The notes below the pieces were generated by a model. It was not told where the DNA came from, made no database searches, and saw only the letters and a list, made by a program, of their open reading frames with translations. The position numbers and the translations under genes are program-made. DNA of 64,000 bases from assembly GCF_024298765.1 (NCBI RefSeq), contig NZ_CP101210.1; one strand, written 5' to 3'. Each line of letters begins with the position of its first letter. Positions within the stretch are counted from its first letter, which is position 1. The stretch comes from Escherichia coli (GTDB lineage: Bacteria > Pseudomonadota > Gammaproteobacteria > Enterobacterales > Enterobacteriaceae). Shown piece by piece: positions 16,376-62,385 of the stretch.

Positions 16376-16468
16376 GGTGAGGTGGCCGAGAGGCTGAAGG
16401 CGCTCCCCTGCTAAGGGAGTATGCGGTCAAAAGCTGCATCCGGGGTTCGAATCCCCGCCTCACCGCCA
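16376..16468 (+). tRNA. serV: tRNA-Ser (anticodon GCU)
   Basis: 93-nt sequence GGTGAGGTGGCCGAGAGG...CCGCCTCACCGCCA with long variable arm; anticodon loop CT-GCT-AA. Confidence 0.92.
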
Positions 16469-16471
16469 TTT

Positions 16472-16548
16472 GCATCCGTAGCTCAGCTGGATAGAGTACT
16501 CGGCTACGAACCGAGCGGTCGGAGGTTCGAATCCTCCCGGATGCACCA
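16472..16548 (+). tRNA. argV: tRNA-Arg (anticodon ACG), copy 1
   Basis: 77-nt GCATCCGTAGCTCAGCTGGATAGAGTACTCGGCTACGAACCGAGCGGTCGGAGGTTCGAATCCTCCCGGATGCACCA. Confidence 0.93.
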
Positions 16549-16746
16549 TATTCTACGTACCTTCAGCGATGAAGGTATGGAAGAGGTGGCGGTAATAACC
16601 GCAGGCACCAGGGAGGATAACGTTGCTTTAGCAACGGCCCGAAGGGCGAGCCGCAAGGCGAGTAATCCTCCCGGATGCACCATCTCTTACTTGATAGGGC
16701 TTTAGTAGCGGTATCAAAAAATCTGCAGTAAAGTAAGTTTCCCGAT
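16549..16746 (+). repeat. tRNA-cluster spacer repeat ending in a duplicated tRNA-Arg 3' end
   Basis: Hairpins cttcagcgatgaag and gttgctttagcaac, then cctcccggatgcacca without a preceding tRNA body; near-identical copy at 17103-17236. Confidence 0.7.
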
Positions 16747-16823
16747 GCATCCGTAGCTCAGCTGGATAGAGTACTCGGCTACGAACCGAGCGGTCGGAGG
16801 TTCGAATCCTCCCGGATGCACCA
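16747..16823 (+). tRNA. argY: tRNA-Arg (anticodon ACG), copy 2
   Basis: Identical 77-nt tRNA-Arg sequence. Confidence 0.92.
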
Positions 16824-16885
16824 TCTCTTACTTGATATGGCTTTAGTAGCGGTATCAATATCAGCAGTAAAATAAATTTTCCGAT

Positions 16886-16962
16886 GCATCCGTAGCTCAG
16901 CTGGATAGAGTACTCGGCTACGAACCGAGCGGTCGGAGGTTCGAATCCTCCCGGATGCACCA
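16886..16962 (+). tRNA. argZ: tRNA-Arg (anticodon ACG), copy 3
   Basis: Identical 77-nt tRNA-Arg sequence. Confidence 0.92.
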
Positions 16963-17025
16963 TCTCTTACTTGATATGGCCTTAGTAGCGATATCAATAT
17001 CAGCAGTAAAATAAATTTTCCCGAT

Positions 17026-17102
17026 GCATCCGTAGCTCAGCTGGATAGAGTACTCGGCTACGAACCGAGCGGTCGGAGGTTCGAATCCTCCCGGATGCAC
17101 CA
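17026..17102 (+). tRNA. argQ: tRNA-Arg (anticodon ACG), copy 4
   Basis: Identical 77-nt tRNA-Arg sequence. Confidence 0.92.
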
Positions 17103-20013: not shown

Positions 20014-20086
20014 AAAAAGGCCACTCGTGAGTGGCCAAAATTTCATCTCTGAATTCAGGGATGATGATAACAAATGCGCGTCTTTC
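20014..20086 (-). ncRNA. micA: MicA (SraD) small regulatory RNA
   Basis: Reverse strand reads GAAAGACGCGCATTTGTTATCATCATCCCTGAATTCAGAGATGAAATTTTGGCCACTCACGAGTGGCCTTTTT with terminal hairpin; lies between gshA and luxS. Confidence 0.9.
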
Positions 20087-24208: not shown

Positions 24209-24544
24209 TTATATAATCGCCATCACTTTCCAGGCGAGCCCGTAGGCCAGCGCACTAAGCAGTGTTGGGATGATAATGCTGCGTGTTTTATAGAAACTGG
24301 CACCCAGTACCGCGAAGCCGACCAGCGTGGGCACGAAACGGCGTGTATCGTGCATCACTTCTGGTGCGGTAGAGACAACCAGCAGAGCGCATATCGAGGC
24401 GATGCCAATGGTGTCGAGCAATATGCCTATCGCGCCACGTTTGGTTGGGCGGGCATTACCCACACGCAGGCGCAGCGGCAAATAGCGGAAGCAATAATTC
24501 GCCGTGCCAACCAGTAACCCAAGCAGCAGAACCTCATAGCTCAT
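24209..24544 (-). CDS. ygaH: L-valine exporter small subunit YgaH (AzlD family)
   Basis: 111-aa hydrophobic ORF overlapping the ygaZ stop. Confidence 0.85.
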
Positions 24545-25271
24545 CGGGCGCTCCTTGCCAGAATGCCTGGATTAACGCAGTGAGGCAGCCACAGACAATG
24601 CCTGCCAGAATGGCGACGGGAATAGAAAATAGCGTTACGCCTGCAAGGGCACCAACTAACGCTGCGGTAACGCAAAGAGATTGTTTGCGCTGGAAAGAGG
24701 CGAGCAGGAAACTCATAAAGAGTGCCGGAAGCATAAAACCTAATGCTGCTTCAACGGCGGGATATCCTTGCAGCAAGCCGCTGCCGGAGAATGCCCCTAT
24801 TACCGTACCAAATACCCACGATGACCATGAACTGAAGGCAATGCCGATCATCCAGTTCTCGCTCCAGCGGCGATTATTGCGTACCAGTTTTGCGGTTGCG
24901 GCGGCAAAAACCTCATCCGTCAGGCCAAATGCCCACAGGGCGGTTTTCGATTTTTGCAGACGCTGAATAATACGGCTACGCAGTGACGGGCCATACAAAA
25001 CATGGCGAACATCCATTGCCATGACGGTCAGTGCAGCAACCCACAAACTACTCCCGGCTGCCAGCATCGCGGTAATGACGAACTGGCTCGCGCCTGCATA
25101 AATGATGCAGGAGAAAAAAACGCTTTCGAGAGGAGAGAATCCCAGACGGGTCGCATTCAGACCGAACGCAAAGGCCACCGGAATATAACTAATAACAATC
25201 GGTAAACTGTCTTTGCATCCTTCCATGAAGGTCGCCGAACCAGGAGCAGGCTGTGGAGTAGGGCTTTCCAT
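24534..25271 (-). CDS. ygaZ: L-valine exporter subunit YgaZ (AzlC family)
   Basis: 245-aa membrane ORF; synteny. Confidence 0.85.
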
Positions 25272-25394
25272 AGAGTGTACGCTTAACGATTGTTAATATT
25301 ATAAATAGACTGAATGAATATCTTAACCTTATCAGACTGATGGGCTTCTTAACACCCTTATAAGTGTAAAGCCACGAAAACGGTTGCTGATTGC

Positions 25395-26579
25395 TTAATT
25401 TGCGGCTTCCTGACGATGAAAACCTCGCCACCAGACCAGTAAGTTAACCAGGGCAATCGTCGCGCCAGCCAGACAAACGCCAGCCCAACCGCCATGTTGC
25501 CAGGCTGAGGCTGAAATTAGCGAACCGGCGGCACCGCCAATAAAGTAGCTGGTCATGTAACCTGCGGTCAGGCGATTACGCGCATCAGGGTGTATTCGAT
25601 AAATTACCGTCTGGTTAGTGATATGCACGCCCTGCACGGTGAGGTCCAGCACCAGGATGCCGATAATCAGCGCCAGTACGGAAGTGTGACCAAACCAGAT
25701 TGCCAGCCATGAAAGTAACAGCAGCAGCAGACCGAAAGTTGTGGTGTGGTGCGATTTGCCCTTATCGGCAAAACCGCCCGCCGGACGAGCACCCAACGCT
25801 CCGGCAGCTCCCGCAAGTCCAAACAGACCAATGACGCCATCGCTGTAGTTAAAAGGTGGAGCGGCAAGCAAAAAGGCCATTGAGGTCCAGAGAATGCTGA
25901 AGTTGGCAAAGGTCAGGCAGCCCAGCAACGCACGGGTGCGCAGGATCTTATCGCTGATAAACATGCTGAAAACGGAACCAAGCAACTGTGGGTAGTTGAG
26001 GTGGGTTTCTGATTTCATTTGTGGCAGACCACGCCATAATGCCAGCGTCATCAGTGCCATTAACACCGAGGCAACCCAAAAGACTGTGCGCCAGCCGCCG
26101 AGGTTTGCCAGCAACCCGGCAACGGTTCGTGCCAGCAAGATCCCCAACAGCAGACCGCTCATAATGGTGCCGACCACTTTGCCGCGTTTGTCCGGTGAAG
26201 CCAGCGTCGCTGCCAGCGGAACCAGAATTTGTGCCACGACCGAGAATAAACCGGTTAATGCCGTACCGAGGATCATCATCGCCAGCGACTGACTGCTGGC
26301 AGTGATTAACATGCCGCATGCCGCCAGTAAGGTCATCGAGACAATCAGGCGGCGGCGTTCAAACATATCACCGAGGGGAACAAGAAACAGCAGACCTGCG
26401 GCATAGCCCAACTGCGCGGCGGTAACAATAAAGCCTGCCGAACTGGCGGAAAGGGAAAAGTTACGCGCGATGGTGTCGAGCAATGGCTGGGCGTAATAGT
26501 TACTGGCTACCGCCAGGCCGGTGGCGATAGACATCAGCACGATCAGCGCCGGGCTAAGCTCATGATTAGGTTTAGTCAT
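25395..26579 (-). CDS. ygaY: MFS transporter YgaY (intact here)
   Basis: 394-aa uninterrupted ORF with MFS-type hydrophobicity; position matches ygaY. Confidence 0.8.
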   Translation of the reverse strand: MTKPNHELSPALIVLMSIATGLAVASNYYAQPLLDTIARNFSLSASSAGFIVTAAQLGYAAGLLFLVPLGDMFERRRLIVSMTLLAACGMLITASSQSLAMMILGTALTGLFSVVAQILVPLAATLASPDKRGKVVGTIMSGLLLGILLARTVAGLLANLGGWRTVFWVASVLMALMTLALWRGLPQMKSETHLNYPQLLGSVFSMFISDKILRTRALLGCLTFANFSILWTSMAFLLAAPPFNYSDGVIGLFGLAGAAGALGARPAGGFADKGKSHHTTTFGLLLLLLSWLAIWFGHTSVLALIIGILVLDLTVQGVHITNQTVIYRIHPDARNRLTAGYMTSYFIGGAAGSLISASAWQHGGWAGVCLAGATIALVNLLVWWRGFHRQEAAN

Positions 26580-26687
26580 TATTTTTGTTCATCAGGTGAT
26601 GATTAAGCTGGAAATCAATAATAGCGGATGTTGATGAATATGGGATGAAAGATAGATTGTTGAAATGTGCGGTGTGGTTTGTAGGTA

Positions 26688-26760
26688 TGATAAGACGCAC
26701 CAGCGTCGCATCAGGCATTGTGTACAGAGCGGCGGATGAGGCAAAAACGCCTTATCCGCC
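26688..26760. repeat. REP/BIME palindromic elements
   Basis: tgataagacgcaccagcgtcgcatcaggc and ggcggatgaggcaaaaacgccttatccgcc between ygaY and proX. Confidence 0.7.
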
Positions 26761-26770
26761 CGAATAAAAA

Positions 26771-27763
26771 TTACTTCTGCGCTGCCAGCGCCTCATTCAC
26801 CCAGCCATCGAACTGCTGCTGGTGGGCTTTGATCCAGCCATCAACGTGGCCCTGAATATCGCCTTCTGAGGCTTTGCCGTCATGCATAATGGCGTTCTGG
26901 GCGTTAATATCAGCCACTGGTAACTGCATAATGGCAAACAGTTTCGCTGCTGCCGGGTTTTTCTCGGCCCAGGCTTTGTTGGCAACGATATGCATGGTAC
27001 TGACCGGGAAGCCGTAATTCGCGCCATTCGGCAGTTTGGTATCGGCATTTTTATCGCCCGGCAGTGCGGAGAACGGCACCTGCAACCAGACCACATCTTT
27101 CCCCGGTTTCAGTTCGTTACTCACCCAGTACGGCGTCCAGGTGTAGTAAAACACCGGCTTACCCTCTTTGTAACGACTGATGGTGTCAGCCATCATCGCT
27201 GCGTAGTTCCCCTGATTATGCGTCACGGTATTGGTCAGTCCATACGCGGCAAGCTGGTGGTTGATCGCACCTTCGCAGCCCCAGCCTGGGTTACAGCCGG
27301 TTAAATCCGCTTTACCGTCGCCGTTGGTATCGAACAGTTTGGCGATCTTCGGATCTTTAAGTTGCGCGATGTTGGTAATTTTGTACTGGTCGGCAGTTTT
27401 CTTATCGATCAGGTAACCCTGTGCCGCGCCGTTAACAAATACTCCTTCACGATAAAATTTCTTATCGCCACCGGCAGCTTCGTACATGTTGTCATGCAGT
27501 GGCGTCCAGTTCACTGCGGTGAAGGTTGCATCGCCGGAAGCAAGCGAGGTGTAGCCAACGTTGTAATCCACTTCGCTGGGTTTATTGACGGTATAACCTA
27601 ATTTCTCCAGCGCGCGGCTGACCAGCAGCGTCTGGAAAGTTTCTTCGGTGATGGTGCTCTGAACCGGATTAACAGTAATGCCTTTGCCCGGCAGGTCGGC
27701 AGCAAAAGTTTGTGTAGAGATAAGCGTGGCAAACGCTGTCGCAAAAAGTACGCTATGTCGCAT
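26771..27763 (-). CDS. proX: Glycine betaine/proline ABC transporter periplasmic binding protein ProX
   Basis: ORF 26771-27805; start placed at [21 protein letters not shown] (signal peptide) to give 330 aa. Confidence 0.92.
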
Positions 27764-46592: not shown

Positions 46593-46624
46593 TGGTGGAG
46601 CTGGCGGGAGTTGAACCCGTGTCC
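46593..46624 (-). other. att core: duplicated 3' end of tmRNA (ssrA), 32 nt, no tmRNA body
   Basis: Reverse strand reads GGACACGGGTTCAACTCCCGCCAGCTCCACCA, one mismatch to the remembered E. coli ssrA 3' terminus; upstream sequence does not continue as ssrA. Confidence 0.7.
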
Positions 46625-47050
46625 ATAGTTATGTAATTCATTGAATTTAAATAGCCAAATATTGTTGATTTTACAAGCGGCTCTTTTGCGGAACTTTTTC
46701 TGTCCTGTTACTGTCTTACTATTTATTTTAAAATAGTTTCATTTGGAATTAATGGTTTGTGGTTGCAGTTTCGGAGATAGATAGCATTTTTTGCTAAAAA
46801 ATATTTTTATAAAAAATGTGTGTAAAAATGATGTTATGCACAGATTTATGCACAGAGGCTTTGTGATAAACCAGATTGTTTTGGATAAGTTTGTTTTTTT
46901 GTGATTTGTCAACAATATTATTGACTCTTGTTACTAAAGTGAGTGTTTTCTAAGGTGGTCAGAAGTTGTCCCTTCATGTAATCTTATTAGCCATAAAGAA
47001 CAAAAAATAATTCAACATCATTACCAACTATTTGTAAGATAAGGTTTTTA

Positions 47051-47866
47051 ATGTTGCAGCCAGCAAAAAAAGCATCAGTTATTAGCGCGCGGCTAACGAA
47101 ATACCTCAAAGATGGAGTGAGGATTGATGACTTTAGCTTTAGAAGGATGTTACGTGAGATTGAAGCACTTAGAGATCCTGTCTCTGAGGACTATCTTTTA
47201 GCGTTGGTCTATGGTGCACATGGCCAAGTGAATGAGGCGATAGGCTTCTTTGAGCGTTCCTTGCAGGTATGCCATAATGAGGTTGTTGCAAAGAATTTTC
47301 TTGTTTTCTTGTCAGATTACGGTACGTTGAAGAAAAGCTTTGAAACAAGCATTAAGCTTGCTGAAAGCTTCATATCCCCGTTTATTTATCTTCAAGCTTA
47401 TGAAAACTCCCTCTTTATGGGGAAGATGGCGTTGGCGGAGAAGTATTTCCAGTCATACTCTAAATTGTTCGGAGATAAGGAGCCTGAAAAAATGGACAAC
47501 AATCTTGATGAAGTTGTTTCCCAGGTCGAATCCTTTAAGCAACGTGCCGATCTTTCTGGTTTAGAATATGAACTTATTTTCAATAATGTAGCCAATGTCA
47601 TGGATTCTCAGAAGGTTCATCTTTCGGGAATGCGTTTTTATAATATTTCGGAAGAGAAAGTGAATGCGATTGTATTCATGACAAAGTCTTCTGATGCTGA
47701 ACAAATCGCTGATATGAATATTGAGCTTGCTTTTTCAATGGCTGAGCACGATTGTTTAGTCGGTAAAGATTTTGCTGTTTGGTTTGAATGTAAAGACACA
47801 CATATTGAGCAGAATGCTATCTCCGAATTAGGTCTGATTACCCGGAGGGTTGCACATGCCGGTTAA
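47051..47866 (+). CDS. Hypothetical protein, gene 1 of a two-gene cargo operon between att core and int
   Basis: 271-aa ORF, about 40 percent GC by eye, no TM, no recognizable catalytic motif; stop overlaps the start of the next ORF. Confidence 0.6.
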   Translation: MLQPAKKASVISARLTKYLKDGVRIDDFSFRRMLREIEALRDPVSEDYLLALVYGAHGQVNEAIGFFERSLQVCHNEVVAKNFLVFLSDYGTLKKSFETSIKLAESFISPFIYLQAYENSLFMGKMALAEKYFQSYSKLFGDKEPEKMDNNLDEVVSQVESFKQRADLSGLEYELIFNNVANVMDSQKVHLSGMRFYNISEEKVNAIVFMTKSSDAEQIADMNIELAFSMAEHDCLVGKDFAVWFECKDTHIEQNAISELGLITRRVAHAG

Positions 47867-48239
47867 TAGTCAAGATTTTCTCGGTTTTGCAAAAGACTGT
47901 CATCAACGTAATGACGAAATCGGCTATCGAAATGCTATAGCAAGATCCTACTATGGCGCTTACCATCATGTCTTGCCTTGTATGGTAAACGGGCCGAAAG
48001 ACAGTCATCAGGGGCTAATCAATTATTTGCAGGGCGATGCTTCAAGAGGAAGTGAAGTATATGAAGCTAGATATCTAAAAGGGATTAGTTTTATCCTGAG
48101 TCAACTTAAAGCTCAGAGGATTGTTGCAGACTATCGACTTGATCAATCGGTCACTTCTAAACAGTCTGAAGTTGCGATTCTAACAACTGAGAGGCTCTTT
48201 GCTAAGTGTACGGAAATGCTTAAATCGAGAGCCTCCTAA
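47856..48239 (+). CDS. Hypothetical protein, gene 2 of the cargo operon (unverified HEPN-like R-x6-H motif)
   Basis: ATG at 47856 preceded by SD ggaggg; about 127 aa; motif RSYYGAYHH; terminator hairpin aaagccacttaagtggcttttttt immediately after. Confidence 0.55.
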   Translation: MPVNSQDFLGFAKDCHQRNDEIGYRNAIARSYYGAYHHVLPCMVNGPKDSHQGLINYLQGDASRGSEVYEARYLKGISFILSQLKAQRIVADYRLDQSVTSKQSEVAILTTERLFAKCTEMLKSRAS

Positions 48240-48252
48240 TTGATAAAGCCAC

Positions 48253-49425
48253 TTAAGTGGCTTTTTTTGTGATATTGCTGGTCGTATTACCGTCATATTC
48301 CTTTAAATATAAACCATAATGACGAAATAACATTTCCGGCCCTTTATGCCCCATTTGAGCTGCAAGCCAAAACAGGTTTGCTCCCCGGCTGATATGGCGG
48401 GTGGCGAATGTATGCCTAGTTTGATATGGATTTCTGTAACGAATACCTGCTTTTCGCAATGTTGGCACCCATGCTTTTTTCCTGATTGCATCAGCACTTG
48501 CCCAAGGCTTATTGGTCTTTGGATCTTCAAAGACAGTAGTATCCTTCATGAATGTAAATGGCTTCTGATTTATCAGCGCCAACATTGCCTCTTCTGTCAG
48601 TTCAACTTTCCGAGTACCTGCTTTTGTCTTTGTCCCTTTGATAACACCGACAACACTTGCGCTCTGGACATGGGCAGTTTTTCCAACAAAGTCGATATCA
48701 CGCCATCGAAGGGCACATAATTCAGAACTACGCAGGCCTGTATGTATAGCGAACCGGAACAGATTTTCCCATTGTTTGTTTCCGGCTGCTGCTAGTAATG
48801 CATCAACTTCTGCTGGTGATAGCGGATCAACTACGTAGCTGCTTTCTGCTTCTGACTTATCACTTTGGTAGCGCGAAGCTGTTACTAACGATACGGGGTT
48901 AATTTGAAGTACCCCATCGGTCACGGCTTCATCAAGTGCTGACCGCAGGAAAGATAACTGGTTGCGAATTGTTTTTAAGGTCGTTTTCTGATTTTGAATC
49001 CACGCTTTCAGGGTTGCTGGTGTTAATTCACTTGCAGGGCAAATGTGAAGTGAGGCTAACGCACTACGGCATTTTTTATAGCCACCAATCGTAGAGGGTG
49101 AAAGTTTTCTTGTTTCGCAGATTTCAAGATATTCGTCCAGGTACATCTTTACCGTTTTGCCTGCAGCAGCATTACCAAAAATTTTCAAACGAGCAGAACG
49201 GGGAAAATATTCTGCATAAATGAATGTTCCCCTTTCGATCTTATTATGGATTTCGCCGAGTGTACGCTCGGCGTATTTAATGTTCTTTGGTGTTACTTCC
49301 AGATTGGAAAGCGGCTCACGACATCTAACTCCTTTGTAGGTGAAAGTTATATTGATCGTTTCTCCCTGGCGGTGTTTCCTGATTGTTACGCCGCGCGGTA
49401 GTTTGAGCAGTTTTGTCTGGCCCAT
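48253..49425 (-). CDS. int: Phage integrase (tyrosine recombinase)
   Basis: 390-aa ORF with N-terminal arm-binding-like domain and C-terminal catalytic region (RHTFATRH ... LFRHYGLY). Confidence 0.9.
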   Translation of the reverse strand: MGQTKLLKLPRGVTIRKHRQGETINITFTYKGVRCREPLSNLEVTPKNIKYAERTLGEIHNKIERGTFIYAEYFPRSARLKIFGNAAAGKTVKMYLDEYLEICETRKLSPSTIGGYKKCRSALASLHICPASELTPATLKAWIQNQKTTLKTIRNQLSFLRSALDEAVTDGVLQINPVSLVTASRYQSDKSEAESSYVVDPLSPAEVDALLAAAGNKQWENLFRFAIHTGLRSSELCALRWRDIDFVGKTAHVQSASVVGVIKGTKTKAGTRKVELTEEAMLALINQKPFTFMKDTTVFEDPKTNKPWASADAIRKKAWVPTLRKAGIRYRNPYQTRHTFATRHISRGANLFWLAAQMGHKGPEMLFRHYGLYLKEYDGNTTSNITKKAT

Positions 49426-49592
49426 TTTGCAACCTCACTAAGATCAATCCACCTCTCCTTAACGCCTTCAACCTTTAAAACCTGAACACCTTCACGCCAA
49501 ACACCGCGCTGTACACGTTTGTTTATTGCTTCAGGAGTTTCGCCAGTTTCTTTGCAATAAGTTGAGATAGGAACACAATCGAGGTTCAGCAT
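49386..49592 (-). CDS. Excisionase-like small DNA-binding protein
   Basis: Small ORF overlapping the int start; start placed at MLNLD with SD GGAG; position typical for xis. Confidence 0.5.
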   Translation of the reverse strand: MLNLDCVPISTYCKETGETPEAINKRVQRGVWREGVQVLKVEGVKERWIDLSEVAKWARQNCSNYRAA

Positions 49593-49633
49593 ACGTTTCT
49601 CCATTATCCCGTCTGCACACGGGAGCAACATTA

Positions 49634-50524
49634 TTAACGAATAGTGTCGTTACTTTGAAGTACAGCAAATGCCATTAATACTTCTAAAGTATATCTTCTA
49701 TAAAATTTAACAAAACCAACATAGAAAACATAGACGAAGAAAAAGCTAAGCATTATTGAAAGTAAACTATAAAGATAATCACTATGAGTACATAATCGAT
49801 AAATAAAGGTTGGAACTGATACCCAAAATGAAATTATAAAGATTAAACATATGTTTCTGCAAAAACCATATAATGCAACATAGTTTTGAATTTTTGTTTG
49901 ATGTTGTTTTGAAAACTCATAAACATAATGATATGCCAATCTGAAGAGATCATCATCAAGTCCGTTTTTATCTTGTAATAATTGGCGATTTGTTATGAAC
50001 TTTTTCTCATAACCTTCTTTGATCATTAACCATGTTGTATTAGCTAAATGAAATGGTAGAGATTGAGAATAACATAGTTTTTGTGTTATAAAATCCCATA
50101 GTATTATTGGGCATAATACGCATTTGATTATGCGATTCTTTATTTTTGTTTTTTTATCAGCGCTTCTCTCATCGCATGATGGGCTACAAATGCTTTCTGA
50201 GGTATCTATCAATTTTTTAAATAGATATTTGGAAGGATATCCTAATTCTTTATTCATGTATTTTTCGATAAAAAATGCTGACGTGATAGAAATAAAATGT
50301 CCAGCTATATAAGATATAATAACTATTGAAGCGTAGTTCAAAATGCCAAAGATTTGACTTTGACCTCTGAGCAATTCACTTAAGTCAATAACAATATCTA
50401 GATCGAATGTCAAACCACAGAAATACATTAATAGGATAAAAAAACCACCTGGTATTAAATATCCAAGAAAGTCATAGAATGAGAATGGATTTTGATTCAT
50501 TGTTGCTCTCCAATAATTTTTCAA
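49634..50524 (-). CDS. Hypothetical polytopic membrane protein (very AT-rich cargo gene)
   Basis: 296-aa ORF with hydrophobic segments at both ends; roughly 30 percent GC by eye; sits between xis and the YfdR-like gene. Confidence 0.6.
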   Translation of the reverse strand: MKNYWRATMNQNPFSFYDFLGYLIPGGFFILLMYFCGLTFDLDIVIDLSELLRGQSQIFGILNYASIVIISYIAGHFISITSAFFIEKYMNKELGYPSKYLFKKLIDTSESICSPSCDERSADKKTKIKNRIIKCVLCPIILWDFITQKLCYSQSLPFHLANTTWLMIKEGYEKKFITNRQLLQDKNGLDDDLFRLAYHYVYEFSKQHQTKIQNYVALYGFCRNICLIFIISFWVSVPTFIYRLCTHSDYLYSLLSIMLSFFFVYVFYVGFVKFYRRYTLEVLMAFAVLQSNDTIR

Positions 50525-50608
50525 TTTGTAATATAACCTATATCTATATGTTAATAAATTACTTATATGTTCTTTTATGGCAGAGTTTGAATTCGTACGT
50601 GCTGATTT

Positions 50609-51145
50609 TTACGACTCAGTTAACTCTTTAAAGCGTTCCATAAACATCCCATAGGTATGGCCTGGCGACAGTGGAATAACTTTGAACATCTCTGTTGCCG
50701 GGATACCTTCCAGTACGGGCCAGAAAGAGCCATCATCAAGCCCGAGATCGCGGCGTTCGGTTGCCAGCATGATGAGATCGGCATATTTCACGGGCGTACT
50801 CATAACCGGGGGTAACCCGTATTTCTCACGGATTACGGCGTCTATTTTTTCTTCCATCCGTTTATAGTCAGGAAGAAGGCGTTTCAGTGGAGCCGGGATG
50901 TCCTGGCAATACGCTTCTGTTGCATCATGCATTAACGCTTCAAAAGCAAATTCCTGCGGTACCAGCTGGCTGCAAAGCACCGCATGTTGGGCGACGCTGT
51001 AGAAGTGTGAAAGATGGCCGGCAAAGCGACAGATATTTGAAAGGGAAACCGCGATATCGTTAATATCGATGTTGTCTTTATTTATCCTGTCATAATAAAA
51101 ATGTTTCCCGGAAAAAGTTTTAATAAATGACATTTTGTTCTCCAC
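50609..51145 (-). CDS. HD-domain phosphohydrolase (YfdR-like 5'-deoxynucleotidase family)
   Basis: 178-aa ORF with H...HD motif (AQHAVL ... LMHDATEAY); same size as CPS-53 YfdR. Confidence 0.7.
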   Translation of the reverse strand: MENKMSFIKTFSGKHFYYDRINKDNIDINDIAVSLSNICRFAGHLSHFYSVAQHAVLCSQLVPQEFAFEALMHDATEAYCQDIPAPLKRLLPDYKRMEEKIDAVIREKYGLPPVMSTPVKYADLIMLATERRDLGLDDGSFWPVLEGIPATEMFKVIPLSPGHTYGMFMERFKELTES

Positions 51146-51261
51146 GTTATATGCGCTGCACCGCGCTGAATTTTGGTTAAAGAAAACCCTCGCCTTCAGG
51201 CGATTATTGAGTCAATTACGTTTCCATAAATGCCCCCGCAGGGGCATTTGCAGTAATGAAA

Positions 51262-52086
51262 TCAGGCGGTGAAAGTCCCAATAAAGGTTTCTACTTTGCT
51301 GTCCTTGAATTTCTCAACAAGCAGATCACGAAATTCGTTAGCCATATCTTCCTGCACCGCTTCCAGCTGAATAATGCGCAGAACCAGTACAGGACGATCG
51401 CCAGTGATAATGCTGAGGCGTAATTTAAACGGACGTTCTTTCAGACCTTCAAACGGAACGCATTTAAACTCAAATGCCACTGGCATAATGTCTTTGGTCT
51501 TCGCTTCGACAGACTCCATCAGGGAGCGTTTGCCGCTGAAGTCATTATCTTCAAAATCAGCAGTCTGGTTTGCTTCAATCGTGATTTTACGGACCGCCGC
51601 AGCCGCTTTTGTTGCCTGAATGGTGTCACCATTAGCATCAAAGCCCACAAGATAGTCGGCCCAGTCTTCGATCCATTCTGCCAGTGATTTCTGGGAGTTA
51701 CGCTCTCCATTAACAGACAACAGAGCAGAGAACGGTGCTGTCTTTTTCAGTTTGAGAGTGGCGGTGTTATCTGCGTGACCTGGTTCATCAATAGTACCCA
51801 GGTTAAGCACACTGACGGCACGCATATTATCAGCATCGATAAAGCAGCGGGTGCCTTCATCTGCAAGATCTTTAGAATAACGGGTAAAGTCATCAATGCT
51901 GGCAGTGGAAAGCGCACCACGGAAACGGAAGCGATTTAAATTAAATTTTTCCAGATCATGAATGCGGAAATTCTCAGGCAATGCCACAGCATCGGCACCA
52001 ATCTTACTGATAATTTCATTAACACCCTGAGCAGAAATAAGAGCATGGATTTGATTAATTGCGGTTGCGTCTAAGTTCTGAGACAT
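51262..52086 (-). CDS. Phage protein, YfdQ-like (DUF2303 family)
   Basis: 274-aa ORF adjacent to the YfdR-like gene; size and neighbourhood match CPS-53 YfdQ (from memory). Confidence 0.6.
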
Positions 52087-52151
52087 AATAAGTCCTCACT
52101 ATATAAAGATATTCAGTGATGAGATAAATAATCAGTTAATTAAGAACGATA

Positions 52152-52514
52152 TTAATGACCTGCTGCGCGGAGTTTTCCGTCAGGCTCACCGGCAAGAGTC
52201 AGTAATTGTCCCTGGTCTTCCTGCAGAATAGTCAGGCGACCACCGCGATTGACATACATCGGCGTTTCGGTGGTGTCTTCTTCGGAAATTTTCCCACGGT
52301 TAGTCGGGCGAACATATGAGAGTTTGTGTTTGATTTTCACACGGTTCTCATCAAATGGTTCGATTTCCAGGTTGAGTGAGACCTTACCTTTGGTTTTCGT
52401 GTTCATCACACCGGAAGCGACTTCACTGAGAACTGCGCCGATTTTGGTTTCAAATACGCCGCCGTCCAGCTCCCCGATAAATGCCTGCACATCAGTACTG
52501 CGTTCGCTAGCCAT
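52152..52514 (-). CDS. Phage hypothetical protein, possibly YfdP-like
   Basis: Start placed at MASERSTDVQ (ATG ~52514) with SD AGGAG; about 120 aa; the longer ORF-track extension runs through an 18-bp inverted repeat. Confidence 0.55.
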   Translation of the reverse strand: MASERSTDVQAFIGELDGGVFETKIGAVLSEVASGVMNTKTKGKVSLNLEIEPFDENRVKIKHKLSYVRPTNRGKISEEDTTETPMYVNRGGRLTILQEDQGQLLTLAGEPDGKLRAAGH

Positions 52515-52857
52515 TTTGCTGCTCCTCATCATATCGACCCTGCAAGGCCGATTAGTTTCTCCACAAAACAGAGAAGAACACCTGCGGTGGCAGCCGCCCG
52601 GATGGATTGGGTTATGAGCCCGTCGTCCGATGATGTTCTTCTCTGTTTTGTAAAAAGAGCGGTACCAGCCGGAAGCAAGTGTACAAACTGGTACCGCCAA
52701 AGCAGTGGCTGTTGTGGTGACCGGTGCTGATCTCCGGCTTGCGGTTATTTCAGACTCTCACGGGCGTTTAATTGCCCCGCCGAACAGCTCTTTTCCGCAA
52801 TAGCTGCAATGTCTTTCGCGCATCAGCCTGCGCATTCACCACAACTCTAAAAACAAA

Positions 52858-52908
52858 TGTAGGATATCCAACGTGTGGGTGTCAAGAGTTTATGTTGGTT
52901 ATCCTACA
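52858..52908. promoter_or_regulatory. OL-like operator pair (repressor binding palindromes)
   Basis: tgtaggatatccaac (52858-52872) and tgttggttatcctaca (52893-52908); same half-site family as the OR sites. Confidence 0.6.
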
Positions 52909-52925
52909 TAAAAAGATAGGCTCAT

Positions 52926-52951
52926 AAAAAAACCGGGGATACCCCGGTTTT
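52926..52951 (-). terminator. Rho-independent terminator downstream of the cI-like gene (bidirectional-capable)
   Basis: ccgggg-ata-ccccgg hairpin flanked by A7 and T4. Confidence 0.65.
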
Positions 52952-52971
52952 GCGATAGTGAGGAAGATGTG

Positions 52972-53625
52972 TCAAAAATCCATTATTACTTGTTTGACAA
53001 GACCAACTATTCTGCAGTTCTCACCGCATTCAATAGTTTTATAGTTAGGATTTAGTGGGACGAGATACCTGTTCGGCCAGTCCTCAACAAATTTTTTGAG
53101 TGTCGCTTCTTGCCCACCATTGATATGGGCAACAACGATTTTTCCGTTAATACACTCTGTATCAATAATATCTGGCTCTACGATAACGATAGAACCTTCT
53201 GGTATCGATGGTGAGCCGAGGGGATTGGTCATTGAATCACCACGGACCCGTAGTGCAAATGCCATTTCTGATACAAGGGCGGTAGTATAAACCCACTCTT
53301 CAGCATCTTCTTTCCTGACACCAGGCTCCGTCATTGTCCATGAACCCGCCTGAACCCACGAGATGAGGGGGACTTTTTTAACTGCGAATATTTCAGGTTT
53401 TAGATTTATCTTTGGTTCAGGCGAGCCTTTTCCGCTAACAAGCCACAGAGGATCGCATTTAAGTGCGTTGGCTAGGGCTTGAAGGTTGGCTCCATTTGGT
53501 TGGTAGTCGTCCTTTTCCCATCCAGTAACCGTGACACGGTTCACACCAGTCAAATCAGCCAGTGCTTGTTGTGTCAGGTTCAGTTCTTTTCGCCTTTGGC
53601 GAATACGATCACTCATGTTCATCAT
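52972..53625 (-). CDS. CI-like prophage repressor (HTH + S24 LexA-type peptidase domain)
   Basis: 217-aa ORF; N-terminal HTH (LNLTQQALADLTGVNRVTVTGWE), C-terminal GDSM serine motif; divergent from the cro-like gene. Confidence 0.88.
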   Translation of the reverse strand: MMNMSDRIRQRRKELNLTQQALADLTGVNRVTVTGWEKDDYQPNGANLQALANALKCDPLWLVSGKGSPEPKINLKPEIFAVKKVPLISWVQAGSWTMTEPGVRKEDAEEWVYTTALVSEMAFALRVRGDSMTNPLGSPSIPEGSIVIVEPDIIDTECINGKIVVAHINGGQEATLKKFVEDWPNRYLVPLNPNYKTIECGENCRIVGLVKQVIMDF

Positions 53626-53689
53626 GTAGGCAATCCTACCACATGCTCATGTAGGATTCTTGACATTGATATGTTGGATATCCTACATT
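53625..53689. promoter_or_regulatory. OR-like operators and PR/PRM region
   Basis: Palindromes tgtaggcaatcctacc (53625-53640), tgtaggattcttgaca (53650-53665), tgttggatatcctaca (53672-53687); TTGACA -35 at 53660-53665; first operator abuts the cI start codon. Confidence 0.6.
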
Positions 53690-53720
53690 TCTGCTTAACG
53701 TAATTTAACGGGAGACAGAA

Positions 53721-53918
53721 ATGCGGAAATCCGACGTGATTAATTATTTCGGCGGAGTTTGTAAAACCGCCGAAGCCCTAGGTATTAAGCATCCGTCTGT
53801 TTCAGAGTGGCCTGAGATTATTCCTGAAGGCCGAGCGTACCAGTTAGAAAAAATTACTAACGGGAAACTGAAAGTTGACGTGTCTTTATATCAAAAGACT
53901 AACAGTGCTGCGGCATAA
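53721..53918 (+). CDS. Cro-like small DNA-binding protein
   Basis: 65-aa ORF divergent from the repressor with operators between them. Confidence 0.7.
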   Translation: MRKSDVINYFGGVCKTAEALGIKHPSVSEWPEIIPEGRAYQLEKITNGKLKVDVSLYQKTNSAAA

Positions 53919-53945
53919 AAACACCACAGAAATGAGGAATTAACC

Positions 53946-54530
53946 GTGGGTAAAGAACCTGAATGGAAAGTTGATAAACAACCAGCATGGCTGGTGGCAG
54001 CAATACGAAGAACGATTGCTGATTTACCTCATGGCTATGAGGAAGCAGCAGAAATTCTTGGTTTGTATAAATCTGATGATATCACCCCAGCAAAAGATCA
54101 ATTGCATAACAGACTGCGTAGCGGTGGGGATCAAATTTTTCCACTTGAGTGGGCCATGGTTTTACAGGATGCCAGTGGTACCAGGCATGTAACAGATGCA
54201 ATAGCCCGTCGTAGTAATGGGGTGTTTGTGCCGCTGGTGGTCATTGATGACATTGACAATGGTGACATTAATCAGCGGCTGATGGAGTCAATAGAATGGA
54301 TTGGCAAGCATTCCCAGTACTTACGCAAGGCAACTGCTGATGGAGTTATTGACCAAGCTGAGCGTGAGCAAATCGAAGAGAACAGCTACCAAGTAATGGC
54401 GAAGTGGCAGGAGCATTTAACACTGTTATTTCGTGTTTTTTGTGCGCCGGAAAAGAGTAACGCCCGCGAGTGTGCAGCTCCGGGCGTCGTGGCGTCGATT
54501 GCTTCTGGTTGTGGAGAAACTAACGCATGA
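53946..54530 (+). CDS. Phage regulatory protein, CII-like (tentative)
   Basis: 194-aa ORF directly after cro in the cII position; family assignment from position and vague similarity only. Confidence 0.45.
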
Positions 54531-54865
54531 ACAGTTTAACAACACACTACCGTCGTTCGCAACTGATTGCGCTTCCTGTACCGGGTGGAAAAGCGAAGGT
54601 GGAGTATTGCTATGCAGTGAATGTACCAGGTGATAGGGAAATTGTAACCCACAGCTTTGCAGAGTGGGCTGTGGGTGATTTCAACCGGCAGAAGGAGACA
54701 GTCCTTTGCGACAAGTTAACCGCTGGTTCAAAGATCACTACGGAGTGCCCGTCAGAGTCATTCGTTGGGAGCCGGAAACACAACGGGTTATCTACCTCCG
54801 TGAAGGCTATGAACATGAATGCTTCAGTCCGCTCGAACAGTTTCGTCGTAAATTCAGGGAAATAG
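54527..54865 (+). CDS. Hypothetical phage protein (C-terminal part doubtful)
   Basis: 112-aa ORF starting at the ATGA overlap with the upstream stop; the last ~50 aa are low-complexity and overlap ORF 54706-54918 out of frame. Confidence 0.35.
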
Positions 54866-54918
54866 AGGTCGGTCATGAGCCTGTTAATGACATCCCAGCC
54901 CATTGTGATAAATCGTGA
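54706..54918 (+). CDS. Hypothetical phage protein (TTG start)
   Basis: 70-aa ORF with strong SD gaaggaga about 7 nt upstream of TTG; protein-like composition; overlaps the O-like gene start. Confidence 0.45.
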
Positions 54919-55867
54919 TCTTGCATGCCGTATTGGTCTGAATGAGGCAATTGTGTTGCAGCAGCTTCATTACTGGCTGAATGAAACGAATTCAGGCACT
55001 GAGCATGGCGGAATTCGCTGGGTTTATAACACGACAGAACAGTGGCTGGAGCAGTTTCCGTTCTGGTCAGAGTCCACTCTGAAACGCACATTTGCAAGCC
55101 TGAAATCACTTGGGGTTTTGCGTCGCGAGCAACTCAATAAATCGAAGCGTGACATGACCAACTTCTACACGATCAACTATGAAAGTGAGCTTTTAGAAGA
55201 GGTCAAAGTGAACGAATCCATCAGGTCAAAATGCACTTCTCCATCGGGTCAAAGTGACCTGATGGATGAGCGCAAAATGACACGATCCATTGGTTCAAAA
55301 CGACACGCTGTCATCGGGTCAAAATGGCCCAATGATCTTACAGAGAATACAACAGAGATTACTACAGAGAATAAAACCTCTTCTCGTCCGGACGCTTCGC
55401 AACCGGACACGCAGATGGCTGAACAGGATTTTTTAACTCGCCATCCTGATGCGGTTGTATTCAGCCCTAAAAAGCGCCAGTGGGGAACGCAGGATGATTT
55501 GACCTGCGCACAGTGGCTCTGGAAAAAAATCATCGCTCTGTACGAGCAGGCCGCCGAATGTGACGGCGAAGTGGTACGTCCTAAAGAACCGAACTGGACA
55601 GCCTGGGCAAACGAAATTCGCCTGATGTGTGTACAGGATGGGCGTACTCACAAACAAATCTGCGAGATGTACAGCCGCGTCAGCCGCGATCCGTTCTGGT
55701 GCCGTAACGTGCTCAGCCCGTCGAAGCTGCGGGAAAAATGGGATGAGCTTTCCCTGCGCTTATCGCCGTCCGTCAGCACGTACACAGAAAAACGCGAAGA
55801 TCCGTACTTCAAAGCCAGTTACGACAACGTGGACTACAGCCAGATCCCGGCAGGATTCAGGGGGTGA
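54875..55867 (+). CDS. Replication initiation protein, lambda O-like, with internal iterons
   Basis: 330-aa ORF; N-terminal O-like domain; four to five direct DNA repeats of the ggtcaaaatg type at ~55196-55330. Confidence 0.8.
   Translation: MSLLMTSQPIVINRDLACRIGLNEAIVLQQLHYWLNETNSGTEHGGIRWVYNTTEQWLEQFPFWSESTLKRTFASLKSLGVLRREQLNKSKRDMTNFYTINYESELLEEVKVNESIRSKCTSPSGQSDLMDERKMTRSIGSKRHAVIGSKWPNDLTENTTEITTENKTSSRPDASQPDTQMAEQDFLTRHPDAVVFSPKKRQWGTQDDLTCAQWLWKKIIALYEQAAECDGEVVRPKEPNWTAWANEIRLMCVQDGRTHKQICEMYSRVSRDPFWCRNVLSPSKLREKWDELSLRLSPSVSTYTEKREDPYFKASYDNVDYSQIPAGFRG
55196..55330. repeat. Origin iterons inside the O-like gene
   Basis: Direct repeats gaggtcaaagtg, caggtcaaaatg, cgggtcaaagtg, tggttcaaaacg, cgggtcaaaatg spaced ~20-25 bp. 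Confidence 0.7.
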
Positions 55868-55869
55868 TC

Positions 55870-55962
55870 ATGAGTCTTTTGAATGAAGTTCAGAAATTCA
55901 TTGAAGCCCATCCGGGGTGTACTTCCGGAGACATTGCGGATGCTTTTTACGTGGGGGCTTAA
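55870..55962 (+). CDS. Small ORF (30 aa) translationally coupled between the O-like gene and the methyltransferase
   Basis: ATG at 55870 preceded by SD aggggg; stop overlaps the methyltransferase ATG (TAATG). Confidence 0.3.
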   Translation: MSLLNEVQKFIEAHPGCTSGDIADAFYVGA

Positions 55963-56615
55963 TGAGTAATAAATATTGTCAGGCGCTGGTGGAGCTGCGG
56001 AACAAACCATCCCATGAACTGAAGGAGGTGGGCGATCAGTGGCGCACGCCGGACAGCATTTTCTGGGGAATTAACACCTTGTTTGGCCCGTTTGTTCTGG
56101 ATCTGTTCACTGACGGTGATAACGCCAAATGTGCCGCGTATTACACGGCGGAAGACAACGCGCTGGCGCATGACTGGTCAGAACGCCTTGCGGAGCTTAA
56201 AGGTGCTGCCTTTGGCAATCCCCCATACAGTCGCGCCAGTCAGCATGAGGGGCAATACATCACCGGCATGCGTTACATCATGAAACATGCCAGTGCCATG
56301 CGTGATAAGGGCGGGCGCTATGTTTTCCTGATCAAAGCTGCCACCAGCGAAGTGTGGTGGCCGGAAGATGCGGACCATATTGCTTTTATTCGCGGGCGTA
56401 TTGGTTTTGAACTGCCTGCCTGGTTTATCCCGAAAGATGAGAAGCAGGTGCCGATAGGCGCTTTCTTCGCTGGTGCTATTGCTGTTTTTGACAAGACCTG
56501 GAAGGGACCGGCAATCAGCTACATCGGGCGCGATGAACTTGAGGCATGTGGTGAGGCCTTTCTGGCGCAGGTTCGCCAGCAGGCAGAAAAACTGGTCAGG
56601 GAGATGGTGGCATGA
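55962..56615 (+). CDS. Phage DNA N6-adenine methyltransferase (Dam-like)
   Basis: About 218 aa from MSNKYCQALVEL; motif IV FGNPPYS. Confidence 0.85.
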   Translation: MSNKYCQALVELRNKPSHELKEVGDQWRTPDSIFWGINTLFGPFVLDLFTDGDNAKCAAYYTAEDNALAHDWSERLAELKGAAFGNPPYSRASQHEGQYITGMRYIMKHASAMRDKGGRYVFLIKAATSEVWWPEDADHIAFIRGRIGFELPAWFIPKDEKQVPIGAFFAGAIAVFDKTWKGPAISYIGRDELEACGEAFLAQVRQQAEKLVREMVA

Positions 56616-57001
56616 AGCTGATCCTGCCTTTTCCGCCCAGCGTGAACACGTACTGGCGACACCCCAACAAAGGGGCGTTTGCTGGTAAGAGCCTGATAAG
56701 CGCGGCGGGGCGAAAATTCCAGAGCGCGGCGTGCGCAGCAATAGTTGAGCAGTTACGTCGTCTGCCGAAACCAACGTCGGCACCTGCTTCAGTGGAGATC
56801 GTGTTGTTTCCTCCGGATAACCGGATCCGCGATCTGGACAACTATAACAAGGCGCTGTTTGACGCCCTGACCCACGCGGGTGTGTGGGAAGACGACAGTC
56901 AGGTGAAAAGAATGCTGGTGGAGTGGGGACCGGTTATCCCGGGAGGGAAGGTCGAGATCACTATCAGTAAGTACGAGAAAACGGCGGGTGCAGCCGCCTG
57001 A
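56612..57001 (+). CDS. rusA: Holliday junction resolvase RusA-like
   Basis: 129-aa ORF; RusA-like pattern (PPSVNTYWRH ... DLDNYNKALFDALTHAGVWEDDSQV). Confidence 0.85.
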   Translation: MKLILPFPPSVNTYWRHPNKGAFAGKSLISAAGRKFQSAACAAIVEQLRRLPKPTSAPASVEIVLFPPDNRIRDLDNYNKALFDALTHAGVWEDDSQVKRMLVEWGPVIPGGKVEITISKYEKTAGAAA

Positions 57002-57020
57002 TTAAGAGGAGAAACGAAGT

Positions 57021-57818
57021 ATGAATAATCTGATGGTCATTGATGGTATTGAAGTTCGTCGTGATGCTTATGGTCGTTACAGCCTGAACGATCTGCACAG
57101 GTCTGCCGGTTCTCTGGATAAGCATAAGCCTGCATTCTGGCTCCGCAATGAGCAAACTGAACGTTTAATAAGCGAGTTGCAGATTTGCAACTCGGTCAAT
57201 ATAGAGCCAGTTAACGTTATTCGTGGCGGAAATAACCAGGGGACGTATGTCTGCAAAGAACTGGTGTATGCCTATGCAATGTGGATCAGCCCGTCATTCC
57301 ATCTGAAGGTGATCCGTACTTTCGACATGGTAACCAGCGCACCGGAAAAATTATCCGGACAGGCTGCTGACAAGATGCAGGCTGGTGTGATCCTGCTGGA
57401 CTTTATGCGCCGGGAATTAAACCTGTCTAACTCATCAGTGCTTGGAGCCTGTCAGAAGCTTCAGGAGGCTGTTGGCTTACCGAATCTGGCACCGCGCTAT
57501 GCCATTGATGCTCCTGCTGATGCACTCGATGGCTCAAGCCGCCCGACACTGTCACTGAGTGCACTGCTGAAGCAGTATGGTATCCGCCTGACAGCTAATC
57601 AGGCATATCACCAGATGGCGAAGCTGGGGATCGTTGAACAACGTGAACGATACAGCCGCACTGCGATTAACAACATCAAAAAATTCTGGTCGCTGACGGC
57701 GAAAGGCTGCATGTTCGGCAAGAACATCACCAGTCCCGCAAATCCGCGCGAGACGCAGCCGCATTTCTTCGAATCCCGATTCCCTGAGCTGTTAAAGCTG
57801 CTCGATACCGTTCATTGA
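57021..57818 (+). CDS. KilA-N domain protein (antirepressor-like)
   Basis: 265-aa ORF; N-terminal KilA-N-like region (VRRDAYGRYSLNDLHRSAG ... KPAFWLRNEQTERLI). Confidence 0.7.
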   Translation: MNNLMVIDGIEVRRDAYGRYSLNDLHRSAGSLDKHKPAFWLRNEQTERLISELQICNSVNIEPVNVIRGGNNQGTYVCKELVYAYAMWISPSFHLKVIRTFDMVTSAPEKLSGQAADKMQAGVILLDFMRRELNLSNSSVLGACQKLQEAVGLPNLAPRYAIDAPADALDGSSRPTLSLSALLKQYGIRLTANQAYHQMAKLGIVEQRERYSRTAINNIKKFWSLTAKGCMFGKNITSPANPRETQPHFFESRFPELLKLLDTVH

Positions 57819-57819
57819 G

Positions 57820-58815
57820 GTGACCGTGAGAGCACTACTGACCCCTGAAATTGCCCCGCGTATGGGGATCGTATTGTTCAGACCAGGTTCAGAGCTGATG
57901 CCCTTGTTTATGCAGGGGCGTGTCCTGCTGGAGCCTGAGCCGGAACGTTATTCATCTTTCGCCAGTGGTGCCGTTCCGGCGGCATCACAACCGCTGGCGG
58001 ATGATCCTGCCGTTCGGGCCGTGTTCCGCAATGAGGCAGTGATCCGTCGTGCTGGTGGCGTGGAATGTCTTGAAAGCTGGTTACTTCGTGAAAAAGGCTG
58101 CCAGTGGCCTCATTCCGGCTGGCACAGCGAGAACATGACAACAATGCGACACGCTCCGGGCGCAATCCGTCTGTGCTGGCACTGCGATAACCAGCTGCGC
58201 GATCAGTTCACGGAACGGCTGGAATCAATGGCAACGGATAACTGTGCCCGCTGGGTGTTGTCTGTTGTGCGTCGGGATCTCGGTTTTGATGACAGTCATG
58301 TTGTGACAATGCCGGAACTGTGCTGGTGGCTGATTCGTAATGATCTGGCGGATGCCTTACCGGAAAGTGCAGCCCGTAAGGCACTGAGATTACCGAAGCC
58401 TGTTGTGCCGTCTGTTACCCGGGAAAGTGACCTTGTGCCTTCGGTTCCTGCCACCAGCATCATCCAGGATAAGGCGAAAAAGGTGCTGGCGCTGAAAGTG
58501 GATCCGGAGTCGCCGGAGTCTTTTATGTTACGCCCAAAACGTCGCCGCTGGGTTAATGAAAAGTACACGCGCTGGGTTAAGACACAGCCGTGTGCATGTT
58601 GTGGAAAGCCCGCTGATGATCCCCACCACCTGATAGGTCACGGTCAGGGTGGAATGGGAACAAAAGCGCATGACCTCTTTGTGTTGCCTTTGTGCAGAAA
58701 GCATCACGACGAGCTGCATGCGGATACCGTGGCATTTGAAGAGAAGTATGGCTCTCAGCTGGAGCTGATATTTCGTTTTATCGATCGTGCGCTGGCAATT
58801 GGCGTATTGGCGTAA
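57820..58815 (+). CDS. DUF968-family phage protein (YdfU-like)
   Basis: 331-aa ORF with GTG start; C-terminal Cys/His-rich region (QPCACCGKPADDPHHLIGHG ... CRKHHDELH); usual position between rusA and Q. Confidence 0.65.
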   Translation: MTVRALLTPEIAPRMGIVLFRPGSELMPLFMQGRVLLEPEPERYSSFASGAVPAASQPLADDPAVRAVFRNEAVIRRAGGVECLESWLLREKGCQWPHSGWHSENMTTMRHAPGAIRLCWHCDNQLRDQFTERLESMATDNCARWVLSVVRRDLGFDDSHVVTMPELCWWLIRNDLADALPESAARKALRLPKPVVPSVTRESDLVPSVPATSIIQDKAKKVLALKVDPESPESFMLRPKRRRWVNEKYTRWVKTQPCACCGKPADDPHHLIGHGQGGMGTKAHDLFVLPLCRKHHDELHADTVAFEEKYGSQLELIFRFIDRALAIGVLA

Positions 58816-58828
58816 GTGGAGAACGAGC

Positions 58829-59581: not shown

Positions 59582-59691
59582 ATGATTTTCGCCGAAGATG
59601 GCGACATGATGCTTGCATTTTTCAAAAAATCTGGTTAGGATTCTCCTAACGATGGGCTTTGTATGTCTGCCGTTAACGAAATCATAACAAA

Positions 59692-59713
59692 CCTCGCTTC
59701 GGCGGGGTTTTTG
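59692..59713 (+). terminator. tR'-like rho-independent terminator after the late promoter
   Basis: Hairpin cctcgc-ttcg-gcgggg followed by tttttgctttt. Confidence 0.7.
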
Positions 59714-59731
59714 CTTTTCTGGAGGTCAATA

Positions 59732-59989: not shown

Positions 59990-60068
59990 CTGAAATAATA
60001 AACAGACTGTCATTAAGATCCCTTCCCCTCATATCTGAGAGGACCAACAGCAATTAAGAGGGGGCTAA

Positions 60069-61880: not shown

Positions 61881-61972
61881 TGTTAACTTTGTTTTGTTCC
61901 TTGATTTGATATGTGATGGCCCAATAGATACAAAGCACCTGATTTTGGTGACTCTTTTAAAGGGCTTTACAC

Positions 61973-62293: not shown

Positions 62294-62385
62294 TTTATCG
62301 AGATGATAATTGAACCGCCTCCGGGCGGTTTTTTATTGCCATTTCTATGGTCTGTTCCATCGTAATAACTTAAAGGGAAGCATTA

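Follow-up and report, generated by a model that had tools for sequence, protein, structure and literature searches.

The literature in which ygaY is named gives the gene no function: it is treated there as a K-12 pseudogene, as an integration site or as an element of chromatin architecture. The locus is in wide use in K-12 engineering, where inserts are placed in it on the understanding that it is neutral and where it serves as a pseudogene control. The Keio deletion of ygaY, for example, serves as a neutral control (bioRxiv 10.1101/072470), and work on the K-12 chromosome describes weak transcription of the locus together with an H-NS-mediated bridge to ygaY (bioRxiv 10.1101/2023.07.10.548347). 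The reference genome NC_000913.3 carries ygaY (b2681) as an annotated pseudogene of 1178 nt (2808316-2809493), and in another MG1655 record the locus has the PGAP label ‘frameshifted’.

A family has nonetheless been assigned. A TCDB-based table places E. coli YgaY (P76628) at 2.A.1.36.3, within the Acriflavin-sensitivity (YnfM) family (PMC5417439). The founder of TCDB 2.A.1.36 is E. coli YnfM (b1596), for which CCCP-sensitive export of glutarate has been described in E. coli BL21 and C. glutamicum (PMC12622518); overexpression of YnfM raises extracellular anthocyanin (C3G) 4.8-fold (PMC12014714). YnfM is the closest characterised sequence relative of YgaY and aligns with it over its full length (406 columns, BLASTP E 2e-20). 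However, the two proteins are paralogues with only 25% identity, and the substrate of YnfM can therefore not be transferred to YgaY.

The locus described here lies in a stretch of 64,000 nt from an E. coli genome (contig NZ_CP101210.1), referred to below as the window; all coordinates are those of the window unless another record is named. The gene and the two neighbours that anchor it are as follows:

25395..26579, minus strand: uninterrupted ygaY coding sequence of 394 codons, followed by TAA; predicted MFS transporter of the YnfM family (TCDB 2.A.1.36)
26771..27763, minus strand: proX, the upstream neighbour, a synteny anchor
24534..25271, minus strand: ygaZ, the downstream neighbour, a synteny anchor

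A single open reading frame extends from ATG to TAA across the first of these intervals and encodes 394 aa; in the list of reading frames and in the raw sequence alike, the first stop is codon 395. Frames of other phase that overlap the interval all encode 123 aa or fewer, and the chance of a frame staying open for 394 codons is ∼6e-9, that is, (61/64)^394. Upstream on the same strand are proV-proW-proX, and downstream are ygaZ-ygaH-emrR(mprA)-emrA-emrB. Because proX and ygaZ flank the frame on its own strand, it occupies the ygaY position. The encoded protein is exactly WP_000165685.1, a RefSeq ‘MFS transporter’ whose coding sequence has precisely matching coordinates in strains 104 and D10 (in both of which the locus is identical), and over the gene the window sequence is identical to many independent assemblies.

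Comparison with K-12 reveals a single structural difference, located at a short repeat:

26311..26324, minus strand: perfect tandem GCGGCAT-GCGGCAT at gene nt 256-269 (codons 86-90), within transmembrane (TM) helix 3

In pairwise alignment the K-12 gene (b2681, P76628, TCDB 2.A.1.36.3) occupies the same locus and is 96.5% identical in nucleotide sequence over 1185 nt. The sole indel consists of 7 nt (gene nt 256-262) that are absent from K-12: where the window reads CTG-GCGGCAT-GCGGCAT-GTT, K-12 reads CTG-GCGGCAT-GTT. Lacking one GCGGCAT unit, K-12 ygaY is frameshifted; its frame shifts after codon 85, within TM3 (residues 75-94 in the AlphaFold2 model), and stops at codon 89. The product, 88 residues in length, cannot form a transporter. 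When the 7 nt are restored to the K-12 sequence the 394-codon frame reopens, and the repaired allele differs by 1 nt from that of NCTC86 (in which the tandem is likewise perfect) and by one residue (T178A) from the window protein. The dropping of one unit from a perfect tandem is a classic mark of slipped-strand mispairing, and replication slippage appears to be the cause of the K-12 deletion.

These results settle most of what the initial annotation had proposed. It had described an uninterrupted 394-aa MFS-type frame at the ygaY position, and both elements are borne out: the frame runs from ATG to a stop at codon 395 with a product that scores 139.4 bits against Pfam MFS_1, and the position is secured by synteny with proX and ygaZ, to which the minus strand, missing from that annotation, can be added. 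A frameshift that had escaped notice, one of the two points on which the proposal could have failed, was not found in the window gene, the frame being open throughout. The second such point was the state of the K-12 gene, and the statement that ygaY is disrupted in MG1655 proved accurate: in alignment the K-12 gene is not intact but has the single 7-nt gap, in agreement with the pseudogene annotation and the stop at codon 89.

Short tandem repeats are sometimes miscalled, and a 7-bp difference within one might reflect an error of sequencing or assembly that affects the window or, alternatively, the K-12 reference. Nothing else favours such an error, and the population counts reject it: the collapsed junction is common to 353 independently assembled genomes of the K-12 lineage, the extra 7 nt are found in more than 5000 other genomes, the window gene is shared with the independent assemblies mentioned above, and the MG1655 pseudogene is a curated one. 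We regard the chance of an artefact as negligible.

The distribution of the two forms among genomes points in one direction. Of the 5426 complete genomes of E. coli, 5413 contain ≥80% of the ygaY sequence, and it is always chromosomal. Among 39 full-length matches drawn as an evenly spaced sample, 36 measure 1185 nt; the remaining three, which measure 1178 nt, are K-12 MG1655, BW25113 and a transconjugant. A 64-nt probe for the K-12 junction detects the collapsed form in ∼353 records (∼6.5% of complete genomes), and a synthetic collapsed junction on the SNP background of the window gives a result in agreement. The carriers among the matches listed are all laboratory derivatives of K-12 (MG1655, C600, J53, ER1709, XL1-Blue, BW25113 and evolved MG1655 clones). 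An annotated, intact 1185-nt coding sequence with a protein accession is present in all seven of the diverse strains that were fetched (CFT073, O157:H7 G5295, C, 210205630, E24377A, 2013C-3492 and NCTC86). Beyond E. coli, there are orthologues of 394 aa (93-99% identical) in Shigella, E. fergusonii, E. albertii, E. marmotae, Citrobacter and Salmonella; taken with other E. coli alleles, these relatives are 394 aa long, 93-100% identical in protein sequence and in the same synteny as the window gene.

Given the allele counts and the orthologues in other genera, this comparison of sequences identifies intact ygaY as the ancestral form and the norm for the species: K-12 is the exception. The K-12 pseudogene would then derive from one lineage-specific event, which we consider very probable as part of the overall explanation set out below. 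An intact ygaY is in itself already known, being annotated in thousands of RefSeq genomes, just as the K-12 pseudogene is curated. The initial annotation had framed the case as one of retention by this strain; retention stands, but it is ordinary, and the departure is that of K-12 (353 of ∼5400 complete genomes).

Two further observations concern particular strains. In PCP06021, a seawater isolate (NZ_CM129877.1, 2501-2963), a separate large deletion fuses ygaY nt 1-158 to ygaH. The deletion removes the remainder of ygaY, the whole of ygaZ and the beginning of ygaH, and with them the valine exporter YgaZH. As to the strain of the window, 25 kb of its sequence (15000-39999) is 100% identical to that of D10, 181.1, EC31, the GPEC series, 104 and 2009C-3133, which are mostly avian, dog and human isolates of ExPEC type. 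A value of ≥99% over this segment is attained by no more than 73 of 5425 genomes, indicating that the lineage is fairly distinct and less sampled.

The repeat itself is not uniform among lineages. It is a perfect tandem only where codon 88 is TGC (Cys); in most sampled lineages this codon is GGC (Gly) and the repeat is imperfect. A 58-nt probe for the perfect tandem, ending just past the repeat, returned 1137 records at ≥99% identity, including ∼350 partial matches from K-12, which by subtraction leaves ∼790 genomes with a perfect tandem that has not collapsed. The lineage of the window carries the perfect form on a background 34-35 synonymous sites away from K-12 and NCTC86. Since both lineages have the perfect tandem despite these 34-35 synonymous differences, the G-to-T change at codon 88 would be either convergent or moved by recombination.

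It is conceivable that the perfect pair of GCGGCAT units, as created by Gly88Cys, forms a slippage-prone site at which ygaY is switched off at a raised rate, although we consider this the less likely interpretation. A synthetic collapsed junction built on the SNP background of the window had no exact full-length match among 5426 genomes, and the full-length matches that were obtained, at 95.3%, came only from the K-12 lineage. With no collapse on the window background and no recurrent slippage found, a slippage hotspot or phase variation was rejected as the main reading. A single event in the K-12 lineage is the reading we prefer.

The pattern of substitution within the gene speaks to its maintenance. 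Compared with eight other alleles (Nei-Gojobori method), the window gene shows 23-35 synonymous as against 2-6 nonsynonymous differences; dN/dS ranges from 0.019 to 0.088 in the eight pairwise comparisons, with dS up to 0.12, indicating purifying selection as judged from these alleles. The window allele encodes Cys88 and Thr178; Gly88 and Ala178 are the residues in the orthologues of most lineages sampled. Both positions are variable columns in the 104-sequence family alignment, and both residues occur there naturally. The possibility that the two substitutions are deleterious was rejected, as both columns vary in the family.

The protein belongs to a large family. YgaY matches Pfam MFS_1 (PF07690, clan CL0015) at 139.4 bits (cut-off 33.4; E 1.8e-40) and matches MFS_4 over nearly its full length; when 1.84 billion cluster representatives were searched exhaustively, 1156 clusters were returned at E≤1e-30. 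An AlphaFold2 model based on the 104-sequence alignment has a pLDDT of 95.5 and a pTM of 0.93, and its helix pattern fits 12 TM helices, as in the paired six-helix bundles of the MFS fold. In a Foldseek comparison of the model with the PDB there were 457 matches at E≤0.001, of which the best 50 of 457 are all MFS transporters. By family profile and predicted fold alike, YgaY is a 12-helix MFS transporter.

The closest folds are those of three DHA1 exporters, all drug/metabolite:H+ antiporters of known structure: SotB (6KKI-6KKL), MdfA (4ZOW, 4ZP0, 6EUQ) and NorA (8TTE-8TTH), with TM scores of 0.80-0.85 (0.84 for SotB and MdfA). Superposed on the YgaY model they give an rmsd of 2.4-4.4 Å over ∼380-399 columns, with 15-18% sequence identity. 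A profile search of PDB sequences also places SotB first (2.4e-17, full length), followed by EmrD. The curated families are less informative: 27 NCBIfam MFS models match YgaY, all of them far below their cut-offs. The best full-length matches, again below cut-off, are to the sugar-efflux model PRK03545, to Cmx/CmrA and to Bcr/CflA; the scores are 64.1 bits against 401 for PRK03545, 52 against 303 and 201 for Bcr/CflA, and 40 against 479 for EmrD. As no NCBIfam model reaches its cut-off, a function cannot be transferred to YgaY by rule, and the naming of YgaY from an NCBIfam equivalog was rejected for all 27 models.

Sequence motifs give a mixed picture. The loop between TM2 and TM3 is the following feature:

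26346..26378, minus strand: motif-A-like loop between TM2 and TM3, codons 68-78, PLGDMFERRRL

In MFS proteins motif A (G-x-x-x-D-R/K-x-G-R-R/K) lies in the TM2-TM3 loop, and motif C (G-x-x-x-G-P-x-x-G-G), which is characteristic of DHA-type antiporters, lies in TM5. The corresponding loop of YgaY reads P68-L-G70-D71-M-F-E-R75-R76-R77: across the 104 aligned family sequences P68 does not vary, and G70 and D71 show ≥90% conservation. The basic cluster, too, is conserved in the family, but the spacing departs from that of the textbook motif. In TM5, residues 132-161 (GKVVGTIMSGLLLGILLARTVAGLLANLGG; helix limits from the AlphaFold2 model), no G-P pair of motif C was found in the sequence, which weakens an assignment as an antiporter. 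A simple placement within DHA1 is weakened as well, by family models that stay below cut-off, by the absence of the motif C pair and by an identity to SotB, MdfA and NorA of 15-18%. The structural likeness to these proteins supports the view that YgaY may work as they do, rather than membership of DHA1 (TCDB 2.A.1.2).

Together these features suggest how the protein might act. The intact ancestral gene encodes a 394-residue, 12-helix secondary transporter of the inner membrane, a member of the YnfM family (TCDB 2.A.1.36), which by rocker-switch alternating access would most likely carry a small organic solute out of the cell in exchange for protons. In K-12 this protein has been lost with the removal of one GCGGCAT unit in the TM3 region, presumably by a slipped-strand event, which moves the frame after codon 85 and brings a stop at codon 89. 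The protein is probably a proton-coupled exporter, a reading that draws on analogy with YnfM, the closest characterised relative in sequence, and with SotB, MdfA and NorA, the closest in structure. Export seems somewhat the likelier direction of transport. YgaY is presumably expressed and active, presumably exporting and presumably coupled to protons.

YgaY could instead be functional as an importer, a solute:H+ symporter. The MFS fold leaves the direction of transport open, motif C is unrecognisable in TM5, and the weak, partial matches from NCBIfam and the PDB include aromatic acid/H+ symporters, GlcP, DgoT and GlpT. These symporter matches, however, span only residues ∼20-190, the N-terminal half of the protein, whereas the matches of full length are to exporters (SotB, Cmx/CmrA, Bcr/CflA and EmrD); in addition, efflux of glutarate and raised extracellular C3G have been reported for YnfM (PMC12622518, PMC12014714). 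We judge import to be improbable and retain export as the working interpretation.

A different question is whether the open frame is used at all. The regions on either side of the gene contain the following features:

26580..26770, minus strand: spacer of 191 nt between proX and ygaY; REP-type element after proX, then an AT-rich stretch before the ATG
26684..26761, minus strand: REP325-type repeat, Rfam naRNA4 (CssrE), 60.0 bits, barely above the gathering score of 59.5
25272..25394, minus strand: spacer of 123 nt between ygaY and ygaZ, with the same sequence as in K-12
25326->25298, minus strand: promoter-like TTAAGA-17-TATAAT, the only such site in the scan, which would serve ygaZH

The proX-ygaY spacer is identical to that of K-12 at 185 of 191 nt. 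A consensus scan upstream of ygaY found no sigma-70 promoter, with site counts not above the shuffled expectation and hence uninformative on expression, and inspection of the sequence before the ATG found no clear Shine-Dalgarno element. The naRNA4 (nucleoid-associated ncRNA) element of the spacer is present in K-12 too. A mini-ORF of six codons (ATG AAC AAA AAT AAT GAC TAA; 26572-26592, minus strand) begins 13 nt 5′ of the ygaY ATG and overlaps it out of frame; it is identical in K-12 and could be there by chance.

The gene might, on these grounds, be open yet in effect silent, or cryptic, in the strain of the window too, either repressed by H-NS or promoterless, and on its way to being lost. 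The scan that gave no consensus promoter or Shine-Dalgarno is compatible with silence, as is a spacer so close to that of K-12, where low transcript levels and the H-NS bridge are reported. The gene has also been lost independently in K-12 (by 7 bp) and in PCP06021 (by the large deletion) with no known cost. K-12 and PCP06021 are viable without ygaY and the Keio deletion behaves as a neutral control, from which it follows that ygaY is dispensable under laboratory conditions. Silence is nevertheless difficult to reconcile with the record of selection: a dN/dS of 0.02-0.09 at dS up to 0.12 amounts to sustained purifying selection within E. coli, the length of 394 aa has been kept across several genera, and the frameshift affects only ∼6.5% of complete genomes, essentially a single laboratory lineage. 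A gene that is not expressed would not remain so clean, and we hold a silent gene to be quite unlikely.

We infer that ygaY is functional in this strain, because dN/dS is low (0.02-0.09), the length is conserved across genera, the family-invariant residues are retained and the model is a confident MFS fold. The initial annotation had proposed that, if the K-12 gene is disrupted, the strain keeps a functional transporter which K-12 has lost. The intact frame is a matter of observation, whereas the word ‘functional’ draws on dN/dS, length, residues and model. As a whole, the explanation that an ancestral ygaY persists intact in the window, that it encodes an MFS exporter and that a single slippage event inactivated it in K-12 is one that we consider very likely.

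Other parts of the window offered observations of their own. Relative to E. coli D10 the window has 9 mismatches up to ∼46619, after which the sequences diverge inside the 3′-end of the position that ssrA occupies in D10. From 46620 to 64000 there are genes of lambdoid prophage type (integrase, DNA methyltransferase, DUF968, YfdQ, KilA-N and antitermination). Neither Rfam nor ARAGORN detected a tmRNA in the 64-kb window, and coverage of the 17.6-kb prophage stretch stays below 80% in every complete E. coli genome, the best (FORC_082) covering 76%. The segment 46620-64000 has the appearance of a mosaic prophage that has integrated into the attachment site at ssrA. Ordinary RNA genes were also recorded:

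16376-17102, plus strand: cluster of tRNA-Ser and four tRNA-Arg genes, downstream of csrA
20015-20086, minus strand: MicA sRNA, between gshA and luxS

The finding of an intact ygaY is mostly of bookkeeping value and of minor practical relevance. It does bear on the use of the locus: the assumption that ygaY is a neutral site fails outside K-12, in hosts whose ygaY is unbroken and maintained by purifying selection. Phenotypes that depend on YgaY are not discoverable in K-12, and a suitable background in which to assign a substrate would be the strain of the window or NCTC86, whose allele is 1 nt from the repaired K-12 sequence. A bolder proposal is that ygaY encodes a conserved YnfM-family exporter, of relevance to physiology, for a metabolite such as a dicarboxylate or some other small organic solute, and that this role has been overlooked because the K-12 allele is null; the suggestion is speculative, and we consider it rather unlikely. 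If it were true, transporter inventories and efflux screens based on K-12 would miss a pump of almost all natural E. coli, one that is still kept in the avian/ExPEC-type lineage to which the window belongs.
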